From the IMG/VR virus record IMGVR_UViG_3300018049_000017, positions 3,998 through 67,997 of that record: a stretch of DNA of 64,000 nt; one strand, 5' to 3'. The position numbers and the translations under genes were made by a program. Of this stretch, positions 3-28,998 are shown piece by piece; the stretch's first letter is position 1, and the number at the start of each line of letters is the position of its first letter. The stretch is from a virus. Under the pieces are notes generated by a model, which had not been told where the DNA came from, did no database searches, and saw nothing but the letters and a program-made list of their open reading frames with translations.

Positions 3-272
3 AGATTAATAGTACGAAATGATTTAGTATCACAGGCAGAAAGCTTTGGGTATATGTTGGATAATCCTGAGCAGGAAGGCAAAAAGTATAACTACAGAAA
101 AATAAGTGAAGAACATTTATTAAATTGTTTAGTACATGTACAGCAGTTAGAAGTTGGTTTGAGAAAAGTAAGGGCTAAAATAAATGGAGAAATAGAATGT
201 TATGAAGATTTGTTCGATCAATTTAGTGCTGCAAGGCATAGACAAATTAAAGAAGAAGGTAGATTAATATAA
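3..272 (+). CDS. C-terminal part of a sulfotransferase-like protein (5' end lies outside the window)
   Basis: The frame is open from the window edge (RLIVRNDLVSQAESFGYM...). RxDxxxQAxS and YEDL resemble Stf0-type sulfotransferase motifs. Ends GRLI. Confidence 0.45.
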   Translation, partial: RLIVRNDLVSQAESFGYMLDNPEQEGKKYNYRKISEEHLLNCLVHVQQLEVGLRKVRAKINGEIECYEDLFDQFSAARHRQIKEEGRLI

Positions 273-487
273 TGGTAAGTAGAAAAAGACATATACTTAA
301 AACTATCACTTGGAGAATAATAGGTACATTAGATACTATGATTCTTTCATGGATAATTACAGGCAATTGGAAATTTGGAATTGCTATCGGGGGTGTCGAG
401 TTAATAACAAAAATGGTTCTTTATTATTTCCACGAAAGAGCCTGGTATAGGTTTAGTAAATATGGAGTTAAAAAAACTAATAAGTAA
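272..487 (+). CDS. DUF2061-like small membrane protein
   Basis: RHILKTITWRIIGTLDT...KMVLYYFHERAW signature, two hydrophobic helices. Confidence 0.8.
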   Translation: MVSRKRHILKTITWRIIGTLDTMILSWIITGNWKFGIAIGGVELITKMVLYYFHERAWYRFSKYGVKKTNK

Positions 488-1259
488 AGTAGACGATAGT
501 TACGAAAGAATAAAGTTACTTAAAGACGCTTGTAAAGGAGAAACTATATACATTACTACTCCTGGTCCTTCCTTGACTTCTCACAATAGAGATATATTAG
601 TAGAAAAACTAAAAGATAAGATAGTTCTTGCATGTAAGCAATCATATAATTACGTTAAAGAAGTTGCCACCTTTCATCTAATGTCAGCCTATGGATACCA
701 ACCTTATGATTACTACTCAGATGATACTATAGTTCATTGGCAGCTTACTGCTATGAATGTACCAGGTGAGTTACAAAGAATAAAACAGGAATGGAAACAT
801 AAAGCAGATATAATGATTCCATGTTACTCTACTCCTTGGGTTGATATGTATAACACTACGGCATTTAGTAGACGATTTGATCAATTCGAATCATACAGTG
901 AAGGAAAGATTATTTGGGGACCTGGTATAATGTATGAATCAGGTATTCCTTTAGCTATGCATTTAGGAGCTAAAGAAATAGTTACTATAGGATGGGATAT
1001 TGGAGACTTATCTAAATTTGAAAGTGAAAAAGGATACAAATTAGGAGATGACGATTGGAGAAAAGAGCATGCTGAGGATTTATATGCTGAAGGAGTGCAT
1101 GCTGGAGCAGGACCTGATTATGAAGAATTAAAAGAGACTATCGATAGCACGAAAGAAATGTACGATTATTTCTTGGAAAAGGGAATTAAATTTCGTATAT
1201 TATCTAATACCAGCCCTGCTGATGGTAGATTTAAACGTATTACTATAGATGAGTTATAA
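462..1259 (+). CDS. DUF115/Maf-like (sialyltransferase-fold) putative sugar transferase
   Basis: GPSL near the N-terminus and LAMHLGAKEIVTIGWD motif. Confidence 0.6.
   Translation: MELKKLISKVDDSYERIKLLKDACKGETIYITTPGPSLTSHNRDILVEKLKDKIVLACKQSYNYVKEVATFHLMSAYGYQPYDYYSDDTIVHWQLTAMNVPGELQRIKQEWKHKADIMIPCYSTPWVDMYNTTAFSRRFDQFESYSEGKIIWGPGIMYESGIPLAMHLGAKEIVTIGWDIGDLSKFESEKGYKLGDDDWRKEHAEDLYAEGVHAGAGPDYEELKETIDSTKEMYDYFLEKGIKFRILSNTSPADGRFKRITIDEL
1173..1203 (+). promoter_or_regulatory. Bacteroidota-type promoter inside a gene
   Basis: TTG(1173)-N20-TATATTAT(1196), 46 bp upstream of the next ATG. Confidence 0.5.
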
Positions 1260-2064
1260 ATTAGCAATATACATAAAAACTTATAGTGGAGATTTTTTAA
1301 GGATTAAAAACCTTTTGAGATCAATACAAGAATTTAATATTGATGATATACCTGTATTTATATCTTGTCCTAGAGATCAATCTGGTTCTCTATTCTCAAT
1401 GATTGGTAAAGAAGGATATACTTATATACCTGATGAGTATATATTTACTCCTTCATATAGAATACCCGGATGGGAAGAACAAATGCTTGTTAAATTAAAT
1501 GCTTGGAAAAACATCGATGCTGACAACCTTCTTATTATAGATTCAGATGCTGAGTTTGTTAGGGAGTTTTACTTAGATGATTTTATAGCATACGATAATG
1601 TACCTTATACTATCATGCATGAGAATAAGCAAGTATCAGAATATGAGGCAGCTCTCAAGGGTGGTGATTATTCTAAGACTGGGTATGTTAAAGCAGTATT
1701 AGCCTACAGAGAGTTGTTTGGAGGTAAATCTAAGAAGATATACGATTATGGACCTAATCCTCACTTATGGTCTAGGAAAGTATTAGAAAGCTTCGAAGAA
1801 AATTATCTTAAGTATAATGACTTAACTATGGAAAACTTCTGTTTTGGTATAAAGAGTCAGTATGATATACATTTTAGAGAGACGTTAACATACGGAGAGT
1901 ATCTTTTAGCTGGTAGAGCAATAGATATAGTTCCTTGTGGGCCTTTCTTTAAAACGTATCATTGGAAAGAGATGTGGGACTTTGAAGAAGGTACTGGGTT
2001 AGAGTTAAAAGATAATATAAAGAAAAGTTATTTAGGTATCATTAAACAATCTAATTGGTCATGA
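1249..2064 (+). CDS. DUF6492-like GT-A fold protein
   Basis: IYIKTYSGDF.R...L..S, GWEEQMLVKL and IIDSD (DxD) motifs. Confidence 0.6.
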   Translation: MSYKLAIYIKTYSGDFLRIKNLLRSIQEFNIDDIPVFISCPRDQSGSLFSMIGKEGYTYIPDEYIFTPSYRIPGWEEQMLVKLNAWKNIDADNLLIIDSDAEFVREFYLDDFIAYDNVPYTIMHENKQVSEYEAALKGGDYSKTGYVKAVLAYRELFGGKSKKIYDYGPNPHLWSRKVLESFEENYLKYNDLTMENFCFGIKSQYDIHFRETLTYGEYLLAGRAIDIVPCGPFFKTYHWKEMWDFEEGTGLELKDNIKKSYLGIIKQSNWS

Positions 2065-2939
2065 TATTATATCAAGTACATCATATGTGGTATGAGACTA
2101 GCATGATAGACGAATGCTGGACATCGGTAAATAATGCATTAAAAGCTGCACCTAATGTTGATGTAAAGATACAGATATGTTTTAATTTTCAAACCTATAT
2201 TGAAAAACCAAAAGGTGATATTAGAGTAATGTTAGAAAAGCATCAAGGTCATCCTTTGTTTAGAGATAACGATATAGATGTTACTATAAAAGATGATAAT
2301 GATCCATTTTACAACATAGCCGATTGGAGAAGAGAAGTGTATGATCCTAAAGCTAAGTACACAGTATGGGGTGAAACAGATACTATCTTACCTAGAGATT
2401 TTTTTGCTATACTAGATATGGTCAACATAGAACAGCCTCATGTATTAACATTTGCTGGTAGGCCGATGTGGGACAATAGTTGGGATGTAGTAACGCATGA
2501 AAAACTATTAGGATACTCTAAGCCTTGTCAATGTGGTGATGAGCATAGAGAAGATTGTATTGAATTATTAGAAGCACCTCTTAAATATAAAGACTATATA
2601 ACTCAGGAGGAACTAGATAAGTTCAATGATGAGGCTGGTGATATAAAAATAGAACAGGTACCTTGGAAGATTGATGGCAGTACGGTTTGTATATCAGGAG
2701 GTTTAGAAACACCTTTTATTGCTCCTGGAATGCATTTTGTTAGAGAGGATACTTGTTTAGAATTTTATCTTAGAAAGAAAAATATACCTCAAGTATGTAT
2801 TAAGTCTAGGTTAAAAGGACATAATTACAAACACCCTAACAAAAGAGTAGGGACTGATTCTACTAGAAATGATAAAGTATTTAAAAAGTATGCTGATGTA
2901 AGTATAGAATCAATGCAAAAATTTATAAGTGAACTATGA
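2055..2939 (+). CDS. putative GT-A fold glycosyltransferase
   Basis: WGETD (ExD), REDT and a late His. Sits in a glycosyltransferase operon. Confidence 0.45.
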   Translation: MVMILYQVHHMWYETSMIDECWTSVNNALKAAPNVDVKIQICFNFQTYIEKPKGDIRVMLEKHQGHPLFRDNDIDVTIKDDNDPFYNIADWRREVYDPKAKYTVWGETDTILPRDFFAILDMVNIEQPHVLTFAGRPMWDNSWDVVTHEKLLGYSKPCQCGDEHREDCIELLEAPLKYKDYITQEELDKFNDEAGDIKIEQVPWKIDGSTVCISGGLETPFIAPGMHFVREDTCLEFYLRKKNIPQVCIKSRLKGHNYKHPNKRVGTDSTRNDKVFKKYADVSIESMQKFISEL

Positions 2940-3769
2940 TAACATTTTGTATAAGTACCTATAATAATTTACCTTATTTAAAACTAGCTGTAGATTCAGT
3001 TAGAACATATTCATATTGGAAAGATGCTCCATTTATTATCCATGCAGAAAATTGTACTGATGGAACAAATGAGTGGTTAAAAGAAAATGCTTTAGATTTA
3101 AATCTAGAGTTTTATATCGATAAAAATGATAAACCAAAAGGGATAGGAGGAGGAATGAACTTCTGTGCCGAAAAAGTCAAAACAGAATACATTAACTTTC
3201 TTCACTCAGACTTTTATGTCACCCAGAACTGGGATTTGGAACTAATGAAAGTTCACGAACAATTCCCAGAAAAAAAACTTTGGGTCAATTCATTTCGAAT
3301 TGAGCCGAATATGTTTGGTGACCAAGACAGACCAGGTACCCATTTCGTACCAAAGAATGCTTTTGGTGCTTACCATGATGATTTCAACCCTATCAGAATG
3401 TGTAAATATGCTAATGAGTTAGCGGAAAAAAATGATTTCCTTATTCCTAAAGGAGAAGGAGTATCTGGTCTGGTGAAGAAAAGTGTATGGGATGAAACTG
3501 GAGGTAATGATCCTTTATTTGCTCCTACAAGTTGGGATGACTATGATTTATTTTGGAGGATGTTACAGAATGGAGTAGAGTTTTTGATGCCTACTAAATC
3601 GGTTGTATGGCATTTTGGAGCTAGAGGCTCTCATAGATTAGAAGAAAATAATAATCAAACCTCAGATAGACAAAGAATGTCTGAACAAGCTAATGCTCAA
3701 AAGTTTTTTAATAAATGGGGAGGGTTACCAAAGTTTAACGAATATGGAATGATATGCGACATACAGTAA
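2936..3769 (+). CDS. glycosyltransferase family 2
   Basis: ITFCISTYNN, ENCTDGT, FLHSD, WDDYD and VWHFG motifs. Confidence 0.85.
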   Translation: MITFCISTYNNLPYLKLAVDSVRTYSYWKDAPFIIHAENCTDGTNEWLKENALDLNLEFYIDKNDKPKGIGGGMNFCAEKVKTEYINFLHSDFYVTQNWDLELMKVHEQFPEKKLWVNSFRIEPNMFGDQDRPGTHFVPKNAFGAYHDDFNPIRMCKYANELAEKNDFLIPKGEGVSGLVKKSVWDETGGNDPLFAPTSWDDYDLFWRMLQNGVEFLMPTKSVVWHFGARGSHRLEENNNQTSDRQRMSEQANAQKFFNKWGGLPKFNEYGMICDIQ

Positions 3770-4887
3770 TTATACCTTCATATAATACGTTACCCCATCT
3801 TAAGAATACTTATGAGAGTATCAAAAGATATGGAGGCGATGTAGATATTATAATTATAGACGATGCATCTAACGATGGAACAGCTGAATGGTTAATAAGC
3901 TTAAGCGATGAAAGACTTAATAGAGTATTAGGTACTGAACGTAAAGGACATACTTATTGGTATGATGAAGGAATGAGAATAGCTGAGACAGAAATAGTTT
4001 CTATCTTACATTCAGATATGATTATAGGCCCTGGTTACTTTGAAAACTTACTTAAACATTTAAAGAGAGGTAAAGTAGTCTGTGCTACTAGAATTGAACC
4101 TCCTATACATCCTGCTGGTAGAGAAAAAATAGTAAGGAACTTCGGGATGGAGGCAGATGAATTTGTATGGGATACTTTTGAAAAGTTTGTTATACAAGAA
4201 AAAGCTGATAGTGTCAACCTTACTACTAAAGGTATATTTGCTCCTTGGATGTTATATAAAGAAGATCATTTATCGATAGGAGGACATGATCAAAGATTTG
4301 CACCTTTTGGTTATGAAGACTCAGATATTTTTAACAGATGGATACTTGCTGGGTATGAAATGGTTCAAGCTAGAGATGCTCTATGTTATCATATGACTTG
4401 TAGAGGTCATAAATGGAACGCAGGAGTAGGAATAGAAAATCCTGATTACAGAGAAATAATGACTAGATGTGAAAGGGAGTATCAACGTAAATGGGGCGAT
4501 TGGATACAGAATGATCATTATCAACATCCGATTATTAATCCAAAGTATGATAGAGGTATAATAATAAAAAATTGTACTGAAGAATTAATAGGTCAGTTGG
4601 AACCTTGGGGTGATACTTTATATGTTGATTGTCCATATAGAGACTATATCGATAAAGAAAGCAAAAGAACTGTCGTTGATCTTTGGAAAAAAATTAAACC
4701 GTATGATAACGAAAAGAATAATGCTATTTTAGTTGAGGTAGATGCTAAGACATTCACTCAACAAGATTATATTTATATTAGACAACTAAGTCCAATACTA
4801 AAACAAAATCAACCTGAACCAGGACAGGTTACTTTAGGAAATTTAAAACTTAATATTATTAAATATGAAGAAGAAATACCTTGTTGA
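3754..4887 (+). CDS. glycosyltransferase family 2
   Basis: VIIPSYN, IIDDASNDGT, LHSD, GGHD..F...YEDSD and YH motifs. Confidence 0.9.
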   Translation: MRHTVIIPSYNTLPHLKNTYESIKRYGGDVDIIIIDDASNDGTAEWLISLSDERLNRVLGTERKGHTYWYDEGMRIAETEIVSILHSDMIIGPGYFENLLKHLKRGKVVCATRIEPPIHPAGREKIVRNFGMEADEFVWDTFEKFVIQEKADSVNLTTKGIFAPWMLYKEDHLSIGGHDQRFAPFGYEDSDIFNRWILAGYEMVQARDALCYHMTCRGHKWNAGVGIENPDYREIMTRCEREYQRKWGDWIQNDHYQHPIINPKYDRGIIIKNCTEELIGQLEPWGDTLYVDCPYRDYIDKESKRTVVDLWKKIKPYDNEKNNAILVEVDAKTFTQQDYIYIRQLSPILKQNQPEPGQVTLGNLKLNIIKYEEEIPC

Positions 4888-5470: not shown

Positions 5471-6229
5471 ATGTTTAGAAAAATCTATACGTTTGGGTGC
5501 TCTTTCTCCGCACCGTACTGGCTTGAAGAAGAAAAAACATACACTAGCCTACTAGCTAAAAACTATAACTGTGAGGAGTTAAACAACTCTAAACCTGCTG
5601 ACTGTAATGATGCTATCTTTTTAAAATTTACAGATCATCTTCCTGATTTTAAAGAGAACGATCTAATCATTTATCAATTTACTTCCTACAATAGAGAAGG
5701 ATTCTATATTAATAATCATAAAAAGTATTTTTCTACTGCAGGTTTGTCTCCTGACCCAGAACATAATAGAAAACTATTAGATGAATTTGGAGGAGGAAGA
5801 GCTAAGTATAAGATTACTGATGATGAAATAATGACTCTTTTAGATTATACTACAATATGGTCTATATACTCTCTTCGTAATAAATTTTTAAGAGTATATA
5901 ATATTTTACAGTATTTAAAAGAAGAAAAAAATATAGACTACCAGGTATTATTTTTAGATAATCTATTTAGTTCTATAGTCTCTTCATATAACTTATTAAA
6001 GTTACCAACTAGATCAAATGAATTAAATGTAGGTATAAAAGAATGGGTTACTGCTAATAAATTAAGGTTAATAGATATGCCTACTGTTTATCACAAACAA
6101 AGAGATGAACATATTTCAATTGAAGAAGCAGGAATATACAAACAAGATAAACACCCTAATGAAAAAGCTCATGAATTGATAGCTAAAGCTATTATGAATA
6201 AACTAACTGAAAAAGCATCGTTAATATGA
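5471..6229 (+). CDS. SGNH/GDSL-like hydrolase or acyltransferase
   Basis: FGCSFS block I and DKHPNEKAH block V. Ends KASLI. Confidence 0.75.
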   Translation: MFRKIYTFGCSFSAPYWLEEEKTYTSLLAKNYNCEELNNSKPADCNDAIFLKFTDHLPDFKENDLIIYQFTSYNREGFYINNHKKYFSTAGLSPDPEHNRKLLDEFGGGRAKYKITDDEIMTLLDYTTIWSIYSLRNKFLRVYNILQYLKEEKNIDYQVLFLDNLFSSIVSSYNLLKLPTRSNELNVGIKEWVTANKLRLIDMPTVYHKQRDEHISIEEAGIYKQDKHPNEKAHELIAKAIMNKLTEKASLI

Positions 6230-6798
6230 ATTACAATGTAATAGTTTTATCGGTGAAGACAGATGTAGAGAGAAGAAAGCATATTACTAAAGTGTGTAAA
6301 ACTTTGAAGCTTAATTTTGACTTCTTTAATGCTTTAACTCCAGTTGATTTAGATGATAGTTTAATAAATACATACTATAGCAACATGGATGTATATCAAT
6401 ATCCTGAATTAAATCATAAGGCAGTATTTGCTACATTTGAAAGTCATAAAGAAATATTAAAGACAATCTATACGAGTAAACAAAACACATTAGTTTTAGA
6501 AGACGATTTAGTACCGATCAGGGACTATAATTTTACTGATATAGATTTCAGCTCTTTTGACCTACTTCAATTAATGTCTGAAATTAGTTGCTGTTATCAC
6601 TTTGTGAATTGGATATCAGCTGGGTTCCTTTATCAGAAATTTAATTCAAAAGATTATTATCCTACACAGGCTTTTGATTGGGAGTTACATAAATTAAGAA
6701 ACGAATTTAATATACAGACAGTAAACGAACCTGTCTTTGAACAAACAAATAATTTTAAATCACATTTAGCACCTTATGGTTACAAAAAAATTCATTAG
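6226..6798 (+). CDS. glycosyltransferase family 25-like
   Basis: ERRKHI, FESHKEIL and LVLEDD motifs. Confidence 0.75.
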   Translation: MNYNVIVLSVKTDVERRKHITKVCKTLKLNFDFFNALTPVDLDDSLINTYYSNMDVYQYPELNHKAVFATFESHKEILKTIYTSKQNTLVLEDDLVPIRDYNFTDIDFSSFDLLQLMSEISCCYHFVNWISAGFLYQKFNSKDYYPTQAFDWELHKLRNEFNIQTVNEPVFEQTNNFKSHLAPYGYKKIH

Positions 6799-7558
6799 AA
6801 TACTCTGGGGGAGTTTTGATAGATATAAAAATCAAATCGTTGAAGCTAGAAAAGATAACTTAAACGAAACAGTAGTGGTGTGGGGAGAAGATAATGCTAA
6901 TTTATTAGATGAATTAGGATACGATTGTCATTTAGTAAGCAACTCAGCTTATGATCCTTCTATAGCTGCTGATCATACATTTAAAGATCATAGAAGCTTG
7001 ATACACAAAATAGAAGGATTAAAAATAGCATTAGACTTACTGTATGATGAGATAGTATTTGTCGATTGGGACTGTAGAAAAGTAAAAGAGATAGATGATA
7101 ACTTTTGGAATTTATTAAGACAAAAAGAATCTAAGCTTCAAGTTCCTCTTTACACATACCCTAAAAAAGCATTTAACATAATGCTAGAAGATACAAAAAG
7201 AGAACCTCATATAAATAATTTCATCAAAAAGTTAAAAGAGTATATAGAAAAATATAGCTTTGAATATCAGACTAATCATATAATCCCTAATACTGGTTTT
7301 ATGTACTGTAATGATATTACTATCATAGATAAGTTACTAGAAATTATTAAGGCTAATGATCTTCAAACTGTACCTGACGAACTATCAGTATTTTTATACG
7401 GGCAGCATTTAGGTTTAAATCAGTTTATTAAAGAAATAGATCCATTAGTTATAGGTGGTAAGGTTCATGGATACGAATGGTGGAATAATATAGAAGATTC
7501 ATTTGATAAATACAAAGCATCGTTCGGTAATAAAACTAATTACTTTATACATTACTAA
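6776..7558 (+). CDS. putative DxD glycosyltransferase, paralogue of 27063-27773
   Basis: RILWG start, FVDWD, PLYTYPK, PNTGF, ends FIHY. Confidence 0.6.
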   Translation: MVTKKFIRILWGSFDRYKNQIVEARKDNLNETVVVWGEDNANLLDELGYDCHLVSNSAYDPSIAADHTFKDHRSLIHKIEGLKIALDLLYDEIVFVDWDCRKVKEIDDNFWNLLRQKESKLQVPLYTYPKKAFNIMLEDTKREPHINNFIKKLKEYIEKYSFEYQTNHIIPNTGFMYCNDITIIDKLLEIIKANDLQTVPDELSVFLYGQHLGLNQFIKEIDPLVIGGKVHGYEWWNNIEDSFDKYKASFGNKTNYFIHY

Positions 7559-7559
7559 T

Positions 7560-8294
7560 ATGCATTTTAAAAAAGCTTTAATACAATCACAAGAAGGATC
7601 ACCAATACATTATTTGGCTCCTATACCTGTTTATATGAAACAATTCGATGATGATGACCTTCATCAAAGAGTTTATGATTTAGGAATAGAAAAATTAGAT
7701 GCTGTTCAAAAGCAAATGGGACAAGAACTTCCTGAGCAGTTAGATTCAGAGAGGGTAGAGTCTTATTCGGTGAACTATGATAGACAAGATGATTGGGTAG
7801 AACCTAATGAGTTTCAACCTATAGGTAGTAGATTTTTTACTCCTCCTAATAATTTTCTTAACACTCCTGATCCAGATGTACAGGTTTTAGTTGATAGAAT
7901 TAAATCAGGATACATAGAACTTTTAGAAACATTACAACTAAAGAATAACAGGAACCCAGAAATCACAGAAAGCTGGATGCAGTACTATGATCCTTATAAA
8001 GGTAGAGGACATAATGCTCATAATCATTGTAGATGGAGCCCAGAAGAAGCTTCACCAACTTGTTTCTCTGGAGGATATTATTTGTCTGATGGTGAACCTA
8101 TTTTAGATCATCCTTACAGTGGGGTGTTTACTTTTCACATAAGAGGAGCAGCTCATTTTATTAGACCTAAAAAGGGAATGTTAATTATATGGCCGTATGA
8201 TATAGTACATTCTGTTAAACCATTTTACGGTAAATCAAATAGAGTAGTTATAAACTTTAACATTGAAGATTCAGAACTTAAAGGACTTTTATGA
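7560..8294 (+). CDS. 2OG-Fe(II) oxygenase
   Basis: HNH, SGGYY, GMLIIWP..IVHSV.P and RVVINFN motifs. Ends KGLL. Confidence 0.85.
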   Translation: MHFKKALIQSQEGSPIHYLAPIPVYMKQFDDDDLHQRVYDLGIEKLDAVQKQMGQELPEQLDSERVESYSVNYDRQDDWVEPNEFQPIGSRFFTPPNNFLNTPDPDVQVLVDRIKSGYIELLETLQLKNNRNPEITESWMQYYDPYKGRGHNAHNHCRWSPEEASPTCFSGGYYLSDGEPILDHPYSGVFTFHIRGAAHFIRPKKGMLIIWPYDIVHSVKPFYGKSNRVVINFNIEDSELKGLL

Positions 8295-9223
8295 ATAAAG
8301 ATTTCAGAGTAGTTTTTGTAAATTGGACTAAGCCTTATTTTTATAAGAAACAAGCTGAAGGATACAACTTTGATAAACTTGCTGATTTAACATCAGAAGA
8401 TTATGATATGGTTGATTATGAATTAAGAATTCAACAAGCAGCTATAGACTCAGTTAGAAAATATATGCCTGGTAATAGAATTTATCTATATACAGACACT
8501 GCTGGATATAATTTTTATAAACAAAAAGGAATGCTTCAAGACTTTGATTTTGTGAATATAGAAGTTTTAGATAACTATAATAAGACTGCTACTAATCCTG
8601 GTAAATGGTGGACTAGCGGTAAGTCTGTAGTTATGGGACATGTTACAACTCCATTTTTATTTTTAGATAACGATTTCATATTGCAATCTGCAATACCAGA
8701 TGAGTTTTGGGATTATGATTTAATTCATACACAATGGGAAATACAGAGAGGACATTTCTATGTCACTCAAGATATGTTTGATAAATTAGAGGTTCCTATA
8801 GATAACTTTGAGGAAAAGATGCTAATGCCTAACACTTCTTTTGTGTGGATGAATAGCGATACAATTAAAAATAACTACTATGAAAATCATTTAAAAATAG
8901 TAAATAAAGAGTATGAATCTATTCCGGAATGGCTATGGCTACTTTCTGATCAAGGGTTACTAGGTTACTGTGCTAGGGAACATCTTAATGCAAAAGTTGG
9001 AACTCTGGAGAAAAATGCTTATCTTTCTTATGCAGAGCATCCTAAAAAAGAGGATGAATGTGGGTACACTCCAATGTGGGTAGATATAAATAATAAGGAT
9101 CACTTTGATCACATTAAATATCGCCACATATGGATTGATAAAAGGAGAATGAAAAACGATATACAATTCAGAAGAAAAGTACTATCGGAGATCGAATTAA
9201 GAGAGAAGAAAGATTTATTGTAA
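8291..9223 (+). CDS. putative GT-A fold protein (DUF6734-like)
   Basis: LYTD..G, WTSGK, PFLFLDND, PNTS and DQ motifs. Ends KDLL. Confidence 0.55.
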   Translation: MNKDFRVVFVNWTKPYFYKKQAEGYNFDKLADLTSEDYDMVDYELRIQQAAIDSVRKYMPGNRIYLYTDTAGYNFYKQKGMLQDFDFVNIEVLDNYNKTATNPGKWWTSGKSVVMGHVTTPFLFLDNDFILQSAIPDEFWDYDLIHTQWEIQRGHFYVTQDMFDKLEVPIDNFEEKMLMPNTSFVWMNSDTIKNNYYENHLKIVNKEYESIPEWLWLLSDQGLLGYCAREHLNAKVGTLEKNAYLSYAEHPKKEDECGYTPMWVDINNKDHFDHIKYRHIWIDKRRMKNDIQFRRKVLSEIELREKKDLL

Positions 9224-10869: not shown

Positions 10870-11469
10870 ATGAGAAACTTACCAATGGCGATTGGTGGGC
10901 TAGTAGTGATTTTATTGCTAATGGCTTTCACCTCAGTACAAAGAAGTTTTAACAAAGTAGAAATAATTAAATTAGAAGCAAAACCAATAGAGGTTATATT
11001 ACCTGACCCATTAGAGGGTATAAAGGTAGAAATAGATTACAAAGGACATAATGACTTTTTACAAGCAATAGGTCATAGAGAGTCTGGAAATAGATACGAA
11101 GTAGTTAATAGTTTTGGATATATGGGAAAATATCAATTCGGTAAATCGACATTAAAAGGTTTAGGATTTGATGTTACAGTAGATGAATTTATCAATAGTC
11201 CATATATTCAAGAAAAAGCAATGAATTCATTATTGTTGCATAATCAAAAAAAACTTCGTAAATTTATAGAACAATATGAAGGACAAGTAGTACATGGAGT
11301 ATTAATAACTGAGTCTGGAGTATTAGCTGCAGCACATTTAGCTGGAGCAGGTAATGTTAAAAAGTTTTTTAAAAGAGGATTTGAGTTTGAAGATGGATAC
11401 GGAACCAAAATGACATCGTACATGGCTCAATTCTCAGGATATACTTTAAGATTAAATGGCGGTAAATAA
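10870..11469 (+). CDS. lysozyme-fold / lytic transglycosylase-like protein with N-terminal signal or anchor
   Basis: Hydrophobic N-terminus, RESGNRY, GYMGKYQFG and AAAHLAG motifs. Confidence 0.75.
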   Translation: MRNLPMAIGGLVVILLLMAFTSVQRSFNKVEIIKLEAKPIEVILPDPLEGIKVEIDYKGHNDFLQAIGHRESGNRYEVVNSFGYMGKYQFGKSTLKGLGFDVTVDEFINSPYIQEKAMNSLLLHNQKKLRKFIEQYEGQVVHGVLITESGVLAAAHLAGAGNVKKFFKRGFEFEDGYGTKMTSYMAQFSGYTLRLNGGK

Positions 11470-17866: not shown

Positions 17867-18579
17867 TGAACGTATTAGTATTAGAGGAGATTATTAAAGT
17901 TACCTCTACTAACTGGAGATTTATATTTTCAGATCCTTTAGTAGATAAACTTAATTTTATACCAGGTCAGTTAGTTCAGTTATTAGCAAGACCAGGAGAA
18001 GAAAATGCAGTTATTAGAAATTACTCAGTAGCCTCCTGGCCTGATGGGACTAATAGATTAGAGATTATTATCACTTATCTTGAAGGAGGACAAATGAGTG
18101 AATACTTATTTAAAGAAGCTAAAGTAGGAGATGAATTTGCTTATAGAGGCCCAATGGGTGTATTTACTCTTCCTGATAATTTAGAAGAAAGAGAAATATT
18201 CTTTGTAGCCACAGGTTCAGGAGTATCTCCTTTTAGATCCATGCTAGGTAACATCTACAATAAGAAGATTCCTTTCAAAGGTATTAACTTATTCTTTGGT
18301 ACAAGAACAGAGAATGACCTCTTATATAGAGATGAATTTGAATTATACGAAAGAGAGTTAGTAAACTTTAACTATCATCCAGTTCTTTCTAGAGAAAAAG
18401 TAGACGGGATTAAAAGCGGTTGGGTGCATCCTCATTATCTAGAATTTGCTAATCTTTTAGATCAAAGACCATTAGTTTATTTCTGTGGTTGGGATAGAAT
18501 GATAAGTAATGGTAGAAAGTTACTAGCAGAAAAAGGTTATGAAATGACTAAAGATATCAGAGTAGAAATATTTGGGTAG
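17866..18579 (+). CDS. FAD/NAD(P)-dependent oxidoreductase, ferredoxin-NADP reductase fold
   Basis: RNYSVAS, GGQMS, GPMG, ATGSGVSPF, FGTR and YFCG motifs. Confidence 0.9.
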   Translation: MNVLVLEEIIKVTSTNWRFIFSDPLVDKLNFIPGQLVQLLARPGEENAVIRNYSVASWPDGTNRLEIIITYLEGGQMSEYLFKEAKVGDEFAYRGPMGVFTLPDNLEEREIFFVATGSGVSPFRSMLGNIYNKKIPFKGINLFFGTRTENDLLYRDEFELYERELVNFNYHPVLSREKVDGIKSGWVHPHYLEFANLLDQRPLVYFCGWDRMISNGRKLLAEKGYEMTKDIRVEIFG

Positions 18580-19319
18580 TGCAGTTCAAAAGACTCATAG
18601 CGTTTGGGGATAGTTTTACTTTCGGGCATGGTCTTCCTGATTGTCAATCTATGGACGGAATTGGTCCAGGCGATGAACCAAGTAAGTTAGGTTTTGTTTC
18701 TGAGTTAGCTAATAGTCTAAATATTAAAGAAGTACTTAACTTTGCATCTCCAGGAGCCTCTAATAGGTTTATTTGCACTAGTATTTTAAACTTTCCTGAA
18801 TTTAAACCAGATGACTTAATCTTAACTCAATTTACTTATCACGAAAGAGATTATTATTGGAATGAAGATGGACAATCACAGTTTGTAGGTTCTTGGAATT
18901 TTGAAGAAGATCCTTTTGGTAAATACTTTGCTAGTAGAACTTATAAAGAAGCATTTCAAAGGTCCTATGAAGCTATATTGCTTTCTATTCTCTATTTAAA
19001 AAAACAACACGGAGTTAACTTTGGATTTATAACTCCATCACCAGATGGGTTAGAATATTCTATATCTACAACGGATAAAACTATCTTAGATGAAGAAGCT
19101 GTAGTAAAGAATAGCAAACATAACAAATTTGTAGCTAACAGTATAGATACAGTTAATTCTTTTTTGAATGTTCAAGATGAGTACAAAGAAGCTAGTCTTT
19201 TTCATTTTGGTGTTAAAGATTTTGCTCCTGATAATTTACATTGGGGGTTGAAGAGTAACAAGCACTTTGCTCAAATATTGACAAATAGATTTGGTAAAAA
19301 ACGTACGATTTTACATTAA
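18579..19319 (+). CDS. SGNH-like protein
   Basis: FGDSFTFG, PGASN and DNLHWG motifs. GTG start overlaps the previous stop. Confidence 0.75.
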   Translation: MQFKRLIAFGDSFTFGHGLPDCQSMDGIGPGDEPSKLGFVSELANSLNIKEVLNFASPGASNRFICTSILNFPEFKPDDLILTQFTYHERDYYWNEDGQSQFVGSWNFEEDPFGKYFASRTYKEAFQRSYEAILLSILYLKKQHGVNFGFITPSPDGLEYSISTTDKTILDEEAVVKNSKHNKFVANSIDTVNSFLNVQDEYKEASLFHFGVKDFAPDNLHWGLKSNKHFAQILTNRFGKKRTILH

Positions 19320-23803: not shown

Positions 23804-24039
23804 TGAAAGAAATTAGACAGCAGTTTACAAAAGCGCTCAAGGTCATTGACTCGTGCAATAGGCCTGAGCACTTTATGTCTGCTAAAACCTATATCAATCT
23901 ATTCTTCAAAGTTAATAGCACTAAAGCTAAATATGGTACTTATGAAGTAGATCCTGTTATAGTCAATTATTATGAAACGCTCAAGAATAAATTAAAAAGA
24001 GCAAAAAGAAAGTTTTATATTACAAAAGAGGACTCCTGA
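23803..24039 (+). CDS. hypothetical protein
   Basis: TAATG-coupled ORF. Confidence 0.65.
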   Translation: MKEIRQQFTKALKVIDSCNRPEHFMSAKTYINLFFKVNSTKAKYGTYEVDPVIVNYYETLKNKLKRAKRKFYITKEDS

Positions 24040-24727
24040 ACCTCTGGACGTGTTTATAAAACAGATGAGAAGCCCATGCTTCATGTCCTTCAGCAGAAGG
24101 ATGTCCGCATGGAAGATCTGAAGTGAAGTTATTATGCTCTAAAAATTGAGCCATCACATCAGAAGTCCAAGATGGACGATCAGGGATGTCTTCATAGAAG
24201 TTATGAGACATAAATTGGATTAGGTTAAGGTTATTTAAGTTAGCCCAGCCTTCTAAAAGTTCTTTGAATACTTGGTTGTTGAATTGATAATGAGCATCAG
24301 CATTGATAAAGCCTACATAGTTTTGTAGGAAGTATTTTTGATCTCTATTCAATTTGTTAAGATTATGCATCTGAAGAAAAGGATAACGGTATAAAGTATC
24401 TGTGGTATTGAACTCATTACCTCCATCTTCTCCAAACTCTTGCTTTTCAGTTGCTATAGGAATAGGATGTCTATGAGGTTGAGTCCATTGAAACACTACT
24501 AGATCTTCATCTGTTATGTAGCCGCTTCTTTGTAACCTCAATAGTGAGTATAATGATAAGTAATCATTTCCTCCTGGCACAGCGTAGTTACGCTCTGGAG
24601 TGTTGAACATCTTTGATAAGTGAAAGGAGTATCTCTCTTTGAATCTATCTTTTAAACCTGCTCCGTAAGTGTAGGAACAACCGAAGTAATGAGCTTTGCG
24701 AAAGACATCGCGAAATGGATATGACAT
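24020..24727 (-). CDS. SGNH-like protein on the minus strand
   Basis: FGCSYTYG, PGGND and GHPSAEGH motifs. ATG at 24727 follows a minus-strand TATTTATA (24752-24745). Ends SPLL. Confidence 0.8.
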   Translation of the reverse strand: MSYPFRDVFRKAHYFGCSYTYGAGLKDRFKERYSFHLSKMFNTPERNYAVPGGNDYLSLYSLLRLQRSGYITDEDLVVFQWTQPHRHPIPIATEKQEFGEDGGNEFNTTDTLYRYPFLQMHNLNKLNRDQKYFLQNYVGFINADAHYQFNNQVFKELLEGWANLNNLNLIQFMSHNFYEDIPDRPSWTSDVMAQFLEHNNFTSDLPCGHPSAEGHEAWASHLFYKHVQRFRSPLL

Positions 24728-24754
24728 ATTAATTAAAACTTTATTATAAATAGT

Positions 24755-24898
24755 ATGAAAAAGCACAGACAATATAGATCGAATCAAGGAAGATCTCCTA
24801 GACAGCAAGCTAGTAATGAGAAGATTACTATCTTAGCAGTACTTGGTCTTTTAATTACACTTATATTTACAGTTATTGATAACTTCATTAGAGGTTAA
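24755..24898 (+). CDS. 47-aa membrane peptide (not in ORF track)
   Basis: MKKHRQYRSNQGRSPRQ...ILAVLGLLITLIFTVI...*, TAATG-coupled to the next gene. Confidence 0.65.
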   Translation: MKKHRQYRSNQGRSPRQQASNEKITILAVLGLLITLIFTVIDNFIRG

Positions 24899-25578
24899 TG
24901 GTTACAGCTGTACTTACAAAATATAGAAGAGAGTGGTTATTTGATCAACAATTAGCTGCTGTTAAGGATCAGGAATTAGATGTTTCTGAAGTCCTTGTTT
25001 GTGATAATACAGAGGATAATAAAGGAGTATGGGAAAGGTTTAGATTAGCTCAAGAGGCTAGTAATGACTTTGTTTGGATATTAGATGATGATATCATACC
25101 CGGCCCTAAATACCTCAGTAATGTTTGGAATGAGTTTGAGAAGCAAGAAGGATTGTATGGTACTAGAGGACTTCTATTCAACTCTCCAGATAGATATCAA
25201 TTCAATTATAGAGAAGCAGGATGGACTAAACCTGTACCAGTTGTAACAGAAGTAGATTATGTGACTCACAGTTGGTTCTTTAGAAAAGAGTGGTTGGACA
25301 TTTATTGGAGAGCTACTAACGTACCATTTGACAATGGAGAGGATATGAACTTCTCTTTTCAATTGCAGAAGGAAGGAATAAGAACATTTGTGCCTCCGCA
25401 CCCTAGAGGTAAAAAAGAAGTATGGGGTAATACAGTAGGCATTATAAACGACATGCAAGGATTGTGGGATAGTAATCCTAAAAGAGATGGAGAGCACTTC
25501 AGAGATAGAATGTTTGTTTACTTTGATTATCTAATAGAACAAGGATGGGACTTAATAAATAAAAACAATTTAATATAA
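24898..25578 (+). CDS. GT-A (GT2-like) glycosyltransferase
   Basis: WILDDDIIPG, EVDY and GEDM..S motifs. Ends NNLI. Confidence 0.8.
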   Translation: MVTAVLTKYRREWLFDQQLAAVKDQELDVSEVLVCDNTEDNKGVWERFRLAQEASNDFVWILDDDIIPGPKYLSNVWNEFEKQEGLYGTRGLLFNSPDRYQFNYREAGWTKPVPVVTEVDYVTHSWFFRKEWLDIYWRATNVPFDNGEDMNFSFQLQKEGIRTFVPPHPRGKKEVWGNTVGIINDMQGLWDSNPKRDGEHFRDRMFVYFDYLIEQGWDLINKNNLI

Positions 25579-26903: not shown

Positions 26904-27062
26904 ACTTCCGGAATTCTGACCAAACCTAGACCGTACGGTGATATAACCTTGCCATAACACTGCCAGTAAAGTTCCCTTACGGGTTGGTTATATGCGTGAA
27001 AATTCCATACCTATCAGCATCGAGATGCTAGATCTCTAGATATAGTAATATATATTTATATA

Positions 27063-27773
27063 TTAATAGTGTATGAACTTAGATTCTTTAGGACCTATAT
27101 AGTTATTTAGCTTTTCTATAATCTTCTGTTTTATATTAACAGGCTTACCGTCTACTATAGTCCATTTAGGAAATGTTTGATCACTCTCTCTTCCGTACAT
27201 ATATGGGCAATCGTACTTATCTATATATTCATCTAATGTACTGTTAGTCCAGACATAAAATGCAAACTCTTCTATAAGTGTACTGAAGTTATATTTGTTA
27301 TGTATATCAATTAATTCTTTACCTAAGTTAAAATCTCTGAAGTATATAAGACAGGCATTTGGTAAAACATCTGTATCTCTTAGGTTCCAGCTATATTTCA
27401 CAATATCTTCTTTTACTTTCTCTTCCATTCCAGGAAAAGTATAGTTTTTAGGGTATGAATATAGGGGCATACACGGGTTAGGAAATTTTAATTGTAAAAT
27501 CTCATCTAACAAAAGGGGGGTTTTTATATCCCAATCCAAAAATAAAATTTCGCCAAATTCTCTATGAGCTAAATCTAAAGCTTGTAGTTTATAGACAAAG
27601 GTTTGTTCGAGACTATCATTTTGGTACCTACAATTATAACCTAATTTAGTTAAATATTCATAATTTACCCGTCCCCATACGTAAACAACTTCATCAAACA
27701 TGGGTTTTGAGGGTATTTCTTTACTATAATGGAATTCTAAACGTCTTCCCCAAAGTGCTCTTACAATTTTCAT
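27063..27773 (-). CDS. putative DxD glycosyltransferase, paralogue of 6776-7558
   Basis: RALWG, FLDWD, PLYSYPK and PNAC motifs. Ends FIHY. Confidence 0.6.
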   Translation of the reverse strand: MKIVRALWGRRLEFHYSKEIPSKPMFDEVVYVWGRVNYEYLTKLGYNCRYQNDSLEQTFVYKLQALDLAHREFGEILFLDWDIKTPLLLDEILQLKFPNPCMPLYSYPKNYTFPGMEEKVKEDIVKYSWNLRDTDVLPNACLIYFRDFNLGKELIDIHNKYNFSTLIEEFAFYVWTNSTLDEYIDKYDCPYMYGRESDQTFPKWTIVDGKPVNIKQKIIEKLNNYIGPKESKFIHY

Positions 27774-28522
27774 AGAGAATTATACCATTTTTCAAATGTA
27801 CCACTTAAATATTCGTTACAAAGCCTCAAATGTGCTTCAGAATCATAGTGTCCATCACCGGGAACGGGTGAAATGTTGTTTTCTTCAAAAAATCCTCCTT
27901 CATTCATGCAATTTTGCTCTATATAGGTAACATCGTCAAGTATCCATCGGTATTGAGGTAGTAGATAACTGCTTTTCAACGGTTCATTCCATGAGAAAGC
28001 TAAAAGTTTCTTGTTGAACTTGTTGCAAATAGTGATAAAGTTCATAAGATTTTGGTTTGAATAGTTTTTCATCCAATTCGACAGAGCAATTTCCCTAAAA
28101 ATAAACTTGTGTATGTTTTGAGTCGGGTAGTTTGGCTTAAAGTGGTCCATAAATGGGGTTCCGAACTTCTTATCGCTTTGAATATTATGCCAAGTATACA
28201 TTCCTATGTGTTTGACCCTTGCTCCATTGTGTTCTTTATCCTCTTCCCACTGCCATTCCTTGTTATCCCAGTGTCTAAACCCAAGAGTTAACCTTGTCGC
28301 ACCAGAAATTTGACATATTACACCGTCGATTTCGTGTTCTTCCAGGTCATATAGCAGTTTATCGATGTACATTCCTACATTTGCTCCGGGAGACGCTCGT
28401 TGTATTAGTTTGAAGTCGAATTTTTCCGCTAAATGTTTACACCAAGGCTTACCTTTAGTGTTTCCTACTGCTCCAAAATCATCAGATGAGTGGGAGCATC
28501 CATAAACCGCTATAGTTTTCAT
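27770..28522 (-). CDS. SGNH-like protein
   Basis: YGCSHS, SPGAN and DGHYDSEAH motifs. Confidence 0.75.
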   Translation of the reverse strand: MKTIAVYGCSHSSDDFGAVGNTKGKPWCKHLAEKFDFKLIQRASPGANVGMYIDKLLYDLEEHEIDGVICQISGATRLTLGFRHWDNKEWQWEEDKEHNGARVKHIGMYTWHNIQSDKKFGTPFMDHFKPNYPTQNIHKFIFREIALSNWMKNYSNQNLMNFITICNKFNKKLLAFSWNEPLKSSYLLPQYRWILDDVTYIEQNCMNEGGFFEENNISPVPGDGHYDSEAHLRLCNEYLSGTFEKWYNSL

Positions 28523-28998
28523 AATAATTGTGGGTTTTTAGGGACAGTCCACATGTTTAAAGAGAATCTCCTTCCTTTTGTAATGGTTTCTACACTATGA
28601 TACACAGAGTTGCCGTTAAAAGTTAGTAGGTCTCCTTGATTTAGGGTAATTTTTTCCTTGCTAGTGCTCACAACAAACCTTCCTCCTTCGTAATTTTCGT
28701 TCAAACTAGCTACAAAAGTGAAAGAGCTATCAGTATCTATATGCTTAGGTAGTTTGCTCCCTTCTTCATATACGGTTATATTGATCCAAGTAATGGTGTG
28801 TTCATACCCAACTAGGGGGGAAAATTTTGCGGAAATTTCTTTATATAGGGGGGTTTCTGGTGGAAGTGTAAATACATTAGTTCCGTATCTGGACTGTCTT
28901 TGGTCTAATCTATTATTACTGGTAAAATGTTCTTTATAATTCTCAATAAGATCACTACACCAGTCATAATCTAAAAATTTTCTATGTACTTGTACCAT
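28519..28998 (-). CDS. 2OG-Fe(II) oxygenase, prolyl-hydroxylase-like
   Basis: HID, LNENYEGG and HSV..I..G.R motifs. Ends PQLL. Confidence 0.9.
   Translation of the reverse strand: MVQVHRKFLDYDWCSDLIENYKEHFTSNNRLDQRQSRYGTNVFTLPPETPLYKEISAKFSPLVGYEHTITWINITVYEEGSKLPKHIDTDSSFTFVASLNENYEGGRFVVSTSKEKITLNQGDLLTFNGNSVYHSVETITKGRRFSLNMWTVPKNPQLL

Follow-up and report, generated by a model that had tools for sequence, protein, structure and literature searches.

Gene content of the window

The window analysed here (64,000 nucleotides; bases 3998–67997 of the linear 67,997-base viral record IMGVR_UViG_3300018049_000017) carries in its left part a set of genes for glycosyltransferases (GTs), SGNH-like proteins, 2-oxoglutarate (2OG) oxygenases and predicted sulfate-handling proteins, which would together build and decorate a glycan. 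Of the 40 open reading frames (ORFs) at window positions 1–29000, 21 belong to glycan-type enzyme families and are scattered among 19 unrelated ones, in line with a first-pass annotation made from the sequence alone, which had proposed a dispersed set of about 20. The ORFs (translation table 11) cover the region nearly without gaps, almost all on the plus strand, and the G+C fraction lies between 0.30 and 0.37 along the whole window. Genes of the same block, in the same orientation, extend into the 4 kb of contig that precede the window. The features of both parts are collected in Table 1.

Table 1. Glycan-type genes of the window and genes of the 4 kb before it. Positions are those of the window; upstream genes are given by their order. 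aa, amino acids; APS, adenosine 5′-phosphosulfate; bits are profile scores.
Feature	Position	Strand	Evidence and remarks
End of protein with weak polysaccharide pyruvyltransferase match	upstream, 1st	same	22.5 bits, cutoff 25.3
S-adenosylmethionine (SAM) methyltransferase	upstream, 2nd	same	
234-aa protein, no assigned family	upstream, 3rd	same	PDB-chain search gave nothing usable
CTP_transf_3 cytidylyltransferase (CMP-sugar synthetase-like)	upstream, 4th	same	60 bits; nearest NCBIfam models PseF and KdsB, all below cutoffs
APS kinase (CysC-like), 144 aa	upstream, 5th	same	APS_kinase 64.6 bits, cutoff 21.1; profile 4–111 of 152
HAD phosphatase, 121 aa	upstream, 6th	same	
HxGH nucleotidyltransferase, 118 aa	upstream, 7th	same	Nearest models NMN adenylyltransferases, below cutoff
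Mini-sulfotransferase-like ORF, 172 aa	upstream, 8th, running into 1..272 (C-terminal 89 aa)	+	ORF starts 246 bases before the window; contig 3751–4269
DUF2061 small membrane protein	272..487	+	Pfam 84.6 bits
MptE/DUF115-like, first core gene	462..1259	+	PF01973 27.5 bits, E 3.2e-6, cutoff 34.6; in 8 related loci
DUF6492	1249..2064	+	Pfam 40 bits, cutoff 22.9
Conserved core protein, family unassigned	2055..2939	+	In 12 related loci
GT2	2936..3769	+	PF00535 45.3 bits
GT2, clade anchor gene	3754..4887	+	PF00535 71.1 bits; 42 % identical to last glycosyltransferase of immuto island
SGNH-fold (GCS variant), first gene of inserted cassette	5471..6229	+	AlphaFold model, pLDDT 86.9
Short GT25	6226..6798	+	PF01755 41.9 bits, N-terminal half of profile only
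Orphan GT-A, GT8-like	6776..7558	+	Model pLDDT 96.8; invariant D-W-D
2OG-Fe(II) oxygenase, type A	7503..8294	+	PF13759 27.6 bits, cutoff 27; phrog_81 71.9 bits; probable start ATG near 7560
DUF6734-like, GT-A-like, last gene of cassette	8291..9223	+	Pfam 25 bits, cutoff 27
SGNH-like paralog, GDT	11456..12208	+	Leave-one-out profile 151 bits
DUF6734	12961..14151	+	Pfam 59.6 bits
SGNH-like paralog, GDS	16939..17643	+	Leave-one-out 204 bits; Lipase_GDSL weak, E 0.005
SGNH-like paralog, GDS	18579..19319	+	Leave-one-out 65 bits; Lipase_GDSL weak, E 0.0028
SGNH-like paralog, GCS	24020..24808	-	Leave-one-out 43 bits; likely start internal ATG, about 236 aa
GT2-like	24898..25578	+	Pfam 22.5 bits, cutoff 23.3
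Second GT8-like GT-A paralog	27063..27773	-	phmmer against 6776–7558 E 5e-16; profile 188–191 bits
SGNH-like paralog, GCS	27770..28522	-	Leave-one-out 37.8 bits
2OG-Fe(II) oxygenase, type B (PKHD/prolyl-hydroxylase-like)	28519..28998	-	PF13640 43.6 bits
Second GT25, full-length	51410..52288	+	PF01755 62.9 bits, profile 3–199 of 199; 2 kb downstream of tail-fibre genes

Glycosyltransferase families

Three GT2-like proteins had been named; two score above the Pfam threshold, and the third (24898–25578), just below it, aligns to the GT2 pair by hhalign (87–91 %). Both GT25 proteins, including the one placed at 51410, were recovered by Pfam. The proposal of several further DxD-bearing GT-A proteins held for 6776–7558 and 27063–27773 by structure and for 8291–9223 and 12961–14151 by alignment of their DUF6734 family to the GT8-like family (hhalign 80.7 %, E 1.3e-5), but 1249–2064 and 2055–2939 gained no GT-A support. 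The family profile of 2055–2939 found nothing among PDB sequences; the nearest named ESM Atlas clusters of this protein are GT2-like (score 0.97, 151–164 shared features), and a GT-A identity is a lead only. For 462–1259, described as DUF115/Maf-like, a PF01973 match was found, although below the threshold, and PDB-chain searches with the single sequence and with the family profile were empty. At hhalign probabilities of at least 10 %, the DUF6492, 2055–2939, 462–1259, upstream 234-aa and GT25 families were unlinked to the other families compared.

The GT8-like family (6776–7558 and 27063–27773) has 55 metagenomic homologs, none with a Pfam family, and D97-W98-D99 is invariant across 31 of its sequences. 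Foldseek with the model of 6776–7558 returned XXYLT1 and glycogenin (E 4e-6 to 1e-5). Structure comparison against representatives (VIA) gave glycogenin (Z 12.8; 184 aligned residues at rmsd 3.6), the galactosyltransferase Gat1 of Skp1 (6mw8, Z 12.5), the LH3 glucosyltransferase for collagen Gal-Hyl (6wfv, Z 11.6), the capsid glycosyltransferase A64R of PBCV-1 (Z 11.3), protein glucosyltransferases of Legionella and clostridia (about Z 10.8), mimivirus R699 (Z 10.5), the lipooligosaccharide enzyme LgtC (Z 10.3), LH3/ColGalT1 (8zgc, Z 9.8) and mimivirus R655 (Z 8.2), where entries at most one Z unit apart count as tied and a common fold does not establish function. By the predicted structure, both proteins of the window are of GT-A fold and closest to GT8-type enzymes. 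Pfam Glyco_transf_8 matched none of the 31 members, the commonest weak Pfam match being Mannosyl_trans3 (4 of 31), and a family search of PDB chains gave nothing usable. A search of 301 Flavobacteriaceae genomes returned one marginal match (19.4 bits); the same search recovers both copies in the contig of the window.

SGNH-like paralogs

All six proteins annotated as SGNH were recovered by leave-one-out profiles (37.8–204 bits), and the SGNH profile matched none of the other 43 among 49 tested ORFs, nor anything else in the contig; judged by these profiles, the six are true paralogs. The AlphaFold model of 5471–6229, whose alignment input contained 18 extra sequences (17 database relatives and one ORF of locus L045), returned SGNH/GDSL-type entries in nearly all listed Foldseek rows (E about 3e-5; 31 matches with E ≤ 0.001), among them TesA, acetyl xylan esterases, GDSL lipases and PatB. 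The fold of the other five paralogs was assigned by profile alone. A recorded contig of 192,216 bases encodes a protein 99 % identical to 5471–6229.

Across 24 SGNH-like sequences Gly9 and His228 are invariant and Asn38 is nearly so. If Gly-Asp-Ser is taken as block I and the downstream His as block V, as we assume here, block I reads GDS in two paralogs, GCS in three and GDT in one, the nucleophile being Ser in five and Thr in 11456–12208; the Asp preceding the block V His varies and is missing in 24020–24808. The Pfam Lipase_GDSL threshold was not reached (best paralog 18.3 bits, cutoff 23.6), none of 19 database relatives carries a Pfam family, and the six-member profile gave four weak matches in the PDB (E 0.3–1.5), three of them named as GDSL or acetyl xylan esterases.

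In the 301 Flavobacteriaceae genomes 17 SGNH-like matches were found, 16 of them weak and partial. The one strong match (L200/L201, G228:C1:168000-200000) lies about 5 kb before a 3043-aa ORF, the end of which is 68 % identical to the C-terminus of a tail-fibre protein of the window; this 248-kb contig, assigned to a 1.7-Mb “Flavobacteriaceae” genome, carries two SGNH-like genes and is probably phage DNA that was binned together with bacterial sequence.

Sulfation cassette at the left edge

A search for CysC and nucleotide-sugar genes in the rest of the genome had been proposed, and both an APS kinase gene and a CTP_transf_3 gene were found in the 4 kb upstream of the window. The APS kinase stays under the NCBIfam equivalog cutoffs (TIGR00455, 59.7 against 138.7 bits; PRK05541, 67.3 against 127 bits); its identity is 31 % to canonical CysC and 49 % to a short kinase that a Crocinitomicaceae genome encodes beside DUF2061, CysD and CysN. 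No similarity was found between the phage nucleotidyltransferase and the ORF upstream of the short CysC in locus L093.

For the bacterial context of DUF2061, seven Bacteroidota loci, mostly of named isolates, were chosen from 80 returned (L089, L098, L140, L163, L112, L093 and L107). By Pfam, DUF2061 adjoins an APS kinase in all seven, and four show the full order Inositol_P (CysQ-type), DUF2061, APS kinase, CysD, CysN; the same ORF sizes recur in 9 of 12 loci with listed ORFs. DUF2061 and APS kinase are fused in one protein in Roseivirga, and 2 of the 120 longer homologs listed are such fusions. Going by its Pfam content, the Flavobacteriia operon CysQ-DUF2061-CysC-CysD-CysN makes 3′-phosphoadenosine 5′-phosphosulfate (PAPS), and its composition suggests a role of DUF2061 in sulfate activation. 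The phage DUF2061 is 60–74 % identical to proteins of Flavobacteriaceae and related Bacteroidota and is, by this resemblance, derived from a Flavobacteriia host operon; a host in Flavobacteriia is therefore likely.

The sulfotransferase-like sequence beside DUF2061 had been described as a fragment; it proves to be the second half of an intact ORF of 172 aa, and family matches lend support to a sulfotransferase-like assignment. A search of 1.84 billion representatives returned 47 relatives of the protein, almost all of them 160–207 aa long. In the family alignment (45 sequences; outliers of 2266 and 260 aa and the protein's own 96 %-identical representative were left out), Sulfotransfer_3 matched 17 members (best E 4.8e-5), Sulfotransfer_4 three, Sulfotransfer_1 four and Stf0 one, and the ESM Atlas neighbours of the protein include a cluster with 12 % Stf0 members. 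The family profile gave a weak PDB match to the lipopolysaccharide (LPS) sulfotransferase NodH (E 0.82) over both conserved stretches, P9-R10-x-G12 and R88...S97, which are invariant or nearly so in the 45 sequences; going by the weak NodH alignment, these may correspond to the 5′-phosphosulfate loop and the 3′-phosphate Arg...Ser motif. The 172-aa protein alone found nothing usable among PDB chains and had no BLASTP similarity to the Sulfotransfer_2-like protein of locus L047; the 301 Flavobacteriaceae genomes gave 12 weak partial matches to its family.

Because DUF2061 and CysC share a host-operon context, the 172-aa family is sulfotransferase-like and the phage genes form a fixed trio (see below), the cassette at the left edge is read as a putative unit for PAPS supply and sulfate transfer. 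That the nucleotidyltransferase stands in for CysDN as the sulfurylase, and the HAD protein for CysQ, is speculation.

Position within an immuto-like phage genome

Flavobacterium phage immuto is the nearest cultured relative (baseplate wedge protein 57.8 % identical), and any match to the contig was found in 23 phage records. The right half of the window carries a gp25-type baseplate gene, tail-fibre genes with an S74 chaperone domain, a SegE-type endonuclease gene and a primase-like gene. Against 50,697 phage records, neither megablast with window positions 1–25000 nor tblastn with the GT8-like protein 6776–7558 gave a match.

Searching with the DUF932 protein recovered 93 related stretches of viral sequence, and 80 loci (at most 21 kb) were retained; the proteins of the contig were compared with these by tblastn and counted at a coverage of at least 50 %. 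Many of the 80 loci end early upstream, so that the counts per gene are lower bounds. Backbone genes occur in 68–80 of the 80 loci (5034–5441, 68; 9247–9657, 69; 9707–10060, 72; the HNH gene, 74; 12324–12671, 73; 12668–12964, 77; DUF932, 80), and the GT2 pair is widely kept (2936–3769 in 42, 3754–4887 in 53). The order MptE-like, (DUF6492), 2055–2939, GT2, GT2 is preserved in the related loci that extend that far. Cassette and accessory genes occur in 0–10 of the 80: GT25 in none, SGNH 5471 in one, the type A oxygenase in two, 8291–9223 in six, SGNH 16939 in six, SGNH 11456 in seven, the GT8-like gene in eight and DUF6734 in ten. In L014, the closest relative over this region, the backbone genes bordering 5471–9223 adjoin each other; the five genes 5471–9223 are therefore regarded as an inserted cassette. 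From these comparisons the region is a hypervariable zone, in which single genes and small cassettes are gained and lost between backbone genes. Relatives carry halogenase, carbamoyltransferase and SHMT genes in the same zone. Scans of window positions 1–20000 gave 96 sigma-70 promoter matches against a shuffle mean of 100.7, hence no excess, and 8 terminators against a mean of 6.1, which matches the shuffles.

Recurrence of the module in other phages

Viral contigs were scanned with the GT8-like alignment; the 32 loci obtained fall into 24 clusters when their central genes are grouped at 90 % identity, and partner families were sought by profiles within 4 kb of the GT8-like gene. At least one partner family was present in 18 of the 24 clusters (DUF6734 in 13, type A oxygenase in 10, nucleotidyltransferase in 10, APS kinase in 9, SGNH in 8, DUF2061 in 8, GT25 in 4, type B oxygenase in 4 and the sulfotransferase-like family in 1); in the remaining six the GT8-like gene is single or in tandem. 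Several loci show unbroken blocks, such as type A oxygenase, GT8-like, GT25, GT8-like, SGNH, DUF6734, APS kinase, nucleotidyltransferase, DUF2061 in L169, and type A oxygenase, SGNH, SGNH, GT8-like, GT8-like, DUF6734, APS kinase, nucleotidyltransferase, DUF2061, type B oxygenase in L164. The order oxygenase, SGNH, GT8-like of the minus strand of the window is seen again in L045 (same contig as L176). APS kinase, nucleotidyltransferase and DUF2061 form a fixed trio in phages, adjoining DUF6734 and a GT8-like gene, and the sulfotransferase-like gene lies inside this trio in the present contig and in L184. By gene content and order, the scattered genes of the window correspond to a module that is contiguous elsewhere and is split here into three pieces.

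Within the immuto-like clade, APS kinase was found in 6 of 8 loci with a GT8-like gene and in 2 of 72 without (Fisher 2.5e-6), and DUF6734 in 6 of 8 against 10 of 72 (Fisher 6e-4), although the loci are kin and these values overstate their independence. The GT8-like, SGNH-like and sulfotransferase-like families look restricted to phages, as judged against the 301 Flavobacteriaceae genomes sampled.

Two further GT8-like loci are recorded for their arrangement. In L191/L192 (IMG/VR, 476 and 296 kb, jumbo phages) four GT8-like genes stand in one block with no partner within 4 kb. In L180 (IMG/VR contig, locus coordinates 1589–8080) genes of the 7-deazaguanine pathway, QueC-like on one side and PTPS(QueD)-like/radical-SAM on the other, enclose APS kinase, nucleotidyltransferase, GT8-like and carbamoyltransferase genes; the insertion site may be due to chance, or the arrangement may hint at a connection with DNA modification.

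The same families stand head to tail, in several orders, in the 18 clusters with partners, which supports a single pathway for several of them. The first-pass suggestion of a pathway is thus partly supported by this linkage, and its cytoplasmic placement agrees with the hydropathy of the enzyme candidates: none reaches a Kyte–Doolittle value of 1.6 in 19-residue windows, the value at or above which a hydrophobic segment was called. The first-pass annotation had noted no evident signal peptide in them. The suggestion does not extend to the whole set, as the 21 genes need not all serve one pathway. It is improbable that there is no single pathway at all and that the hypervariable zone gathers unrelated accessory genes, the CysC-like gene being an assimilatory sulfur auxiliary metabolic gene (AMG). 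The patchiness of the genes would fit this, as would the presence in the same zone of genes for a DenV-type glycosylase, a flavin reductase, a RadA-like ATPase, an FG-GAP lipoprotein and homing endonucleases and, in relatives, for SHMT, a halogenase and a flavodoxin-like protein; the available text of PMC10914622 likewise reads phage cysC as sulfate assimilation. The recurrent head-to-tail blocks, the fixed trio beside DUF6734 and the GT8-like gene, and the sulfotransferase-like gene inside that trio argue against it.

Eight chosen loci contain further tailoring genes, namely NodU/CmcH-type carbamoyltransferases in six, Trp-halogenase-like genes in two and a UDP-glucose dehydrogenase-like gene in one. 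Such a mixture of carbamoyltransferase, halogenase and 2OG oxygenase resembles natural-product tailoring, and the module might accordingly act on a small molecule (a glycoside, nucleoside or peptide-like metabolite) in place of a macromolecule. The extra 2OG oxygenases of these loci, the Trp-halogenase-like gene of L047 and the flavin reductase gene between two SGNH genes of the window would also suit this. It is nevertheless considered very unlikely: the conserved core consists of glycosyltransferases, and no scaffold-forming enzyme such as a nonribosomal peptide synthetase, polyketide synthase, precursor of a ribosomally synthesised and post-translationally modified peptide, or cyclase was seen in the window or the inspected loci.

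Proposed pathway

On balance, the gene set most likely builds and decorates a glycan, giving a hydroxylated, sugar-bearing and sulfated decoration, in an uncultured myovirus of Flavobacteriia related to immuto; this judgement, given with moderate confidence, covers the explanation as a whole. Two layers may be distinguished. The first would be the clade-wide core of MptE-like protein, optional DUF6492, the conserved protein 2055–2939 and two GT2 enzymes, preceded in this phage by its own sugar-activating and decorating genes (CMP-sugar synthetase-like, methyltransferase and the weak pyruvyltransferase match). The second would be the mobile module of hydroxylase, glycosyltransferase, SGNH and PAPS genes, in three pieces: APS kinase, HAD protein, nucleotidyltransferase, sulfotransferase-like protein and DUF2061 at the left edge of the window; SGNH, GT25, GT8-like, 2OG oxygenase and DUF6734 at 5471–9223; and 2OG oxygenase, SGNH and GT8-like on the minus strand from 28998 to 27063. 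In the host cytoplasm a 2OG oxygenase would create a hydroxyl acceptor, to which GT25 and retaining-type GT-A enzymes would attach sugars; the short phage CysC would increase PAPS, the mini-sulfotransferase would sulfate the glycan, and the SGNH proteins would attach or strip O-acyl groups.

Several results weigh against this explanation, in addition to the kinship of the control loci. The record represents a genome of 41 % completeness (CheckV). The 172-aa protein of the window itself matches no sulfotransferase model, and its family accompanies the module in one of 24 clusters, most modules having no identified PAPS user nearby. In the clade control SGNH (2 of 8 against 9 of 72) and the type A oxygenase (1 of 8 against 1 of 72) were not significantly linked to the GT8-like gene, which would also favour unrelated accessory genes. 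The carbamoyltransferase and halogenase genes in the block of relatives would fit a small-molecule product too, and the SGNH, GT8-like and sulfotransferase-like families are orphans from metagenomes only. As to the acceptor, LgtC lies within 2.5 Z units of the best match, so that protein acceptors are not specifically indicated by the fold; lipid-linked host glycans, too, are made by soluble glycosyltransferases, which renders solubility non-discriminating; and neither a run of at least five Gly-X-Y repeats in any frame nor another obvious acceptor was found in the 68 kb.

Candidate acceptors

We tentatively take the acceptor to be a protein, probably of the virion. Among the best structural matches of the GT8-like model are several enzymes whose acceptors are proteins or protein-bound glycans. 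A virion protein and a host surface glycan are indistinguishable from the sequence, and DNA is the weakest of the three.

Remodelling of a host surface glycan (LPS, capsule or a Bacteroidota protein O-glycan) through lipid-linked precursors at the inner membrane face appears rather unlikely, yet it has much of the ordinary context in its favour. Here the host would provide the initiating transferase, flippase and ligase, and the purpose would be a block of superinfection or keeping progeny off debris. GT25 and GT2 are typical LPS families, LgtC is among the structural matches, DUF2061 and the CysC type come from host-type operons, and the window encodes a predicted lipoprotein and a small membrane protein. 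This is also the customary reading in marine phages: for S-SCSM2R the available text of PMC12801897 lists 22 genes under “cell wall synthesis and modification”, of which 13 encode glycosyltransferases. Against this reading, Pfam revealed no polyprenyl-phosphate transferase, flippase, polymerase or ligase in the 68 kb, it is not evident what a 2OG hydroxylase would do in assembling a lipid-linked glycan, and the GT8-like, SGNH-like and sulfotransferase-like families have no close relatives in the 301 Flavobacteriaceae genomes, except for the one strong SGNH match near a tail-fibre-like gene.

Pairs of 2OG oxygenase and GT-A enzyme could also hypermodify phage DNA, the base being hydroxylated and then glycosylated, as by TET/JBP with TET-associated glycosyltransferases (TAGT). 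Both oxygenases had been proposed from sequence and are supported by Pfam; a PDB-chain search with type A gave nothing usable, and the best PDB sequence match of type B is the PKHD-type hydroxylase PiuC (E 3e-5). Type B also has weak matches to Tet_JBP (E 8.5e-4) and 6776–7558 to TAGT (E 0.072), a Naegleria Tet-like dioxygenase was matched with E 0.07–0.11, and the module genes of L180 sit between QueC and QueD/QueE-like genes. Type B is, however, better matched by PKHD and prolyl-hydroxylase types, TAGT matches one of the 31 GT8-like members against four for Mannosyl_trans3, and the 68 kb showed neither a cytosine methyltransferase nor a hydroxymethylase. In cultured immuto, which has its own glycan island but is without these cassettes and so bears on the question indirectly, analysis by liquid chromatography with ultraviolet and tandem mass-spectrometric detection (LC-UV-MS/MS) gave canonical dA, dC and dT, fdPreQ1 for dG and no sugar-bearing base, according to the available text of PMC10516641. 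A DNA target is thus judged highly improbable.

Membership in two families was rejected by score: TET for the type B oxygenase (Tet_JBP 19 bits, cutoff 34.9), and TAGT (PF20691) for the GT8-like family (13.5 bits, cutoff 27.5).

A narrower form of the preferred protein acceptor would be a phage pathway complete in itself, which places a sulfated O-glycan on a hydroxylated amino-acid side chain of a virion protein and draws its PAPS from a minimal phage synthase; this form is regarded as unlikely. The HxGH nucleotidyltransferase of 118–133 aa would be an ATP sulfurylase that replaces CysDN, the short CysC the kinase, the HAD protein a phosphatase for 3′-phosphoadenosine 5′-phosphate (PAP), and DUF2061 a membrane partner for sulfate supply. 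If true, bacterial viruses would have their own equivalent of the hydroxy-amino-acid glycosylation of collagen and Skp1, and the phage “cysC AMGs” would feed glycan sulfation, not sulfur assimilation.

Other genes of the window

Hydrophobic segments by the hydropathy scan are carried only by the lysozyme-like protein 10870–11469, the FG-GAP protein 15095–16354 and the small protein 16546–16938. The FG-GAP/VCBS-repeat protein (plus strand; FG-GAP_3, 54.3 bits), whose gene is present in only 2–3 of the 80 related loci, has a hydrophobic N-terminus ending in the lipobox-like L-F-S-C and is probably a phage-encoded lipoprotein destined for the host envelope; since the DUF932 gene is followed by a strong hairpin resembling a terminator (15097–15120), translation of the FG-GAP protein probably begins at the ATG near 15131.

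An NAD(P)H-flavin reductase (FAD_binding_6 and NAD_binding_1; 17866–18579, plus strand) is encoded between two SGNH genes. Trp-halogenase-like flavin-dependent genes lie in the same zone of the relatives L047 (365 bits), L164 and L185, and no halogenase was seen among the genes of the 68-kb contig.

Three genes are of homing-endonuclease type (HNH, 10060–10692; T5orf172/GIY-YIG-like, 29926–30435; SegE, 49483–49983). Two plus-strand genes, 9707–10060 and 21725–21997, encode small zinc-ribbon (DksA/TraR-like) paralogs (phmmer E 2e-6). A pyrimidine-dimer DNA glycosylase of the DenV type (20609–21136, plus strand; 71.7 bits) has a counterpart in one of the 80 related loci (93 % identity), and a P-loop kinase with a Zeta_toxin domain (55256–56194, plus strand; 44.5 bits) stands amid replication genes.

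Significance

Large marine phages are known to carry many sugar-transferring genes. The GT8-like, SGNH-fold, DUF6734, mini-sulfotransferase, short CysC, nucleotidyltransferase and DUF2061 genes appear to travel together as a swappable module in Flavobacteriia phages, and the recurring module offers a defined gene set for expression and testing. The analysis also connects the uncharacterised DUF2061 to PAPS synthesis in Flavobacteriia, and phage cysC, counted in viral ecology as a gene of sulfur assimilation, may supply sulfate for a glycan. Should it be true that virions of abundant marine phages bear sulfated glycans, this would bear on adsorption, grazing and the behaviour of particles in seawater.

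Phage glycan islands are already known; the module of hydroxylase, glycosyltransferase, SGNH and PAPS genes appears to be a new form of such an island. A limited literature search, too narrow for a claim of absence, returned no account of the recurring module, none that ties DUF2061 to PAPS synthesis and none in which phage cysC provides the donor for sulfation.

Comparison with known systems

Core glycosyltransferases of large Bacteroidota phages have been published (available text of PMC12619734), and cysC-bearing phages have larger genomes (available text of PMC10914622). The cyanomyoviruses S-SCSM2R, S-SCSM1 and P-SSM2 have many soluble glycosyltransferases (GT2, GT25 and GT24, the last a GT8-like entry) together with CMP-Kdo-type activation genes; they infect another host phylum, and the available text of PMC12801897 reports neither sulfation genes nor a recurring hydroxylase/SGNH/GT module.

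The glycan island of immuto occupies the same genome position, directly before the same backbone (DksA-like, HNH, DUF932 ... T5orf172, HD, baseplate). It shares with the present phage only the last GT2 (42 % identity to 3754–4887) and the collinear backbone; in place of the SGNH, GT8-like, 2OG, DUF6734 and PAPS genes, which it lacks, it has GT-B-type glycosyltransferases, WecE aminotransferases, an epimerase and a PglB-like gene.

Compared with the Flavobacteriia operon CysQ(Inositol_P)-DUF2061-CysC-CysD-CysN, the phage has DUF2061 and a short CysC but neither CysD nor CysN; the 118-aa HxGH nucleotidyltransferase is found in place of CysD/CysN and the 121-aa HAD phosphatase in place of CysQ. 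The systems of TET/JBP and TAGT that act on phage DNA 5-hydroxymethylcytosine (5hmC) resemble the present set in having a 2OG oxygenase beside a GT-A enzyme, whereas membership in these families is unsupported.

Capsid and tail glycosylation has been reported in mycobacteriophages, which are actinophages; to our knowledge, no virus-encoded virion glycosylation system with a PAPS or sulfotransferase module has been reported. A64R of PBCV-1 and R699 and R655 of mimivirus are likewise soluble viral GT-A enzymes, from systems of eukaryotic viruses. In collagen, lysyl hydroxylase acts first, followed by the GT25 enzyme ColGalT1 and the LH3 glucosyltransferase; in Skp1, prolyl hydroxylase is followed by glycosyltransferases, the last of which is the GT8 enzyme Gat1. 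Although there is no sequence-level membership, the contig has no collagen-like repeat and the oxygenases here are of PF13759 and PKHD type, the logic of 2OG hydroxylase, GT25 and retaining GT-A enzyme is common to these systems and the present gene set.

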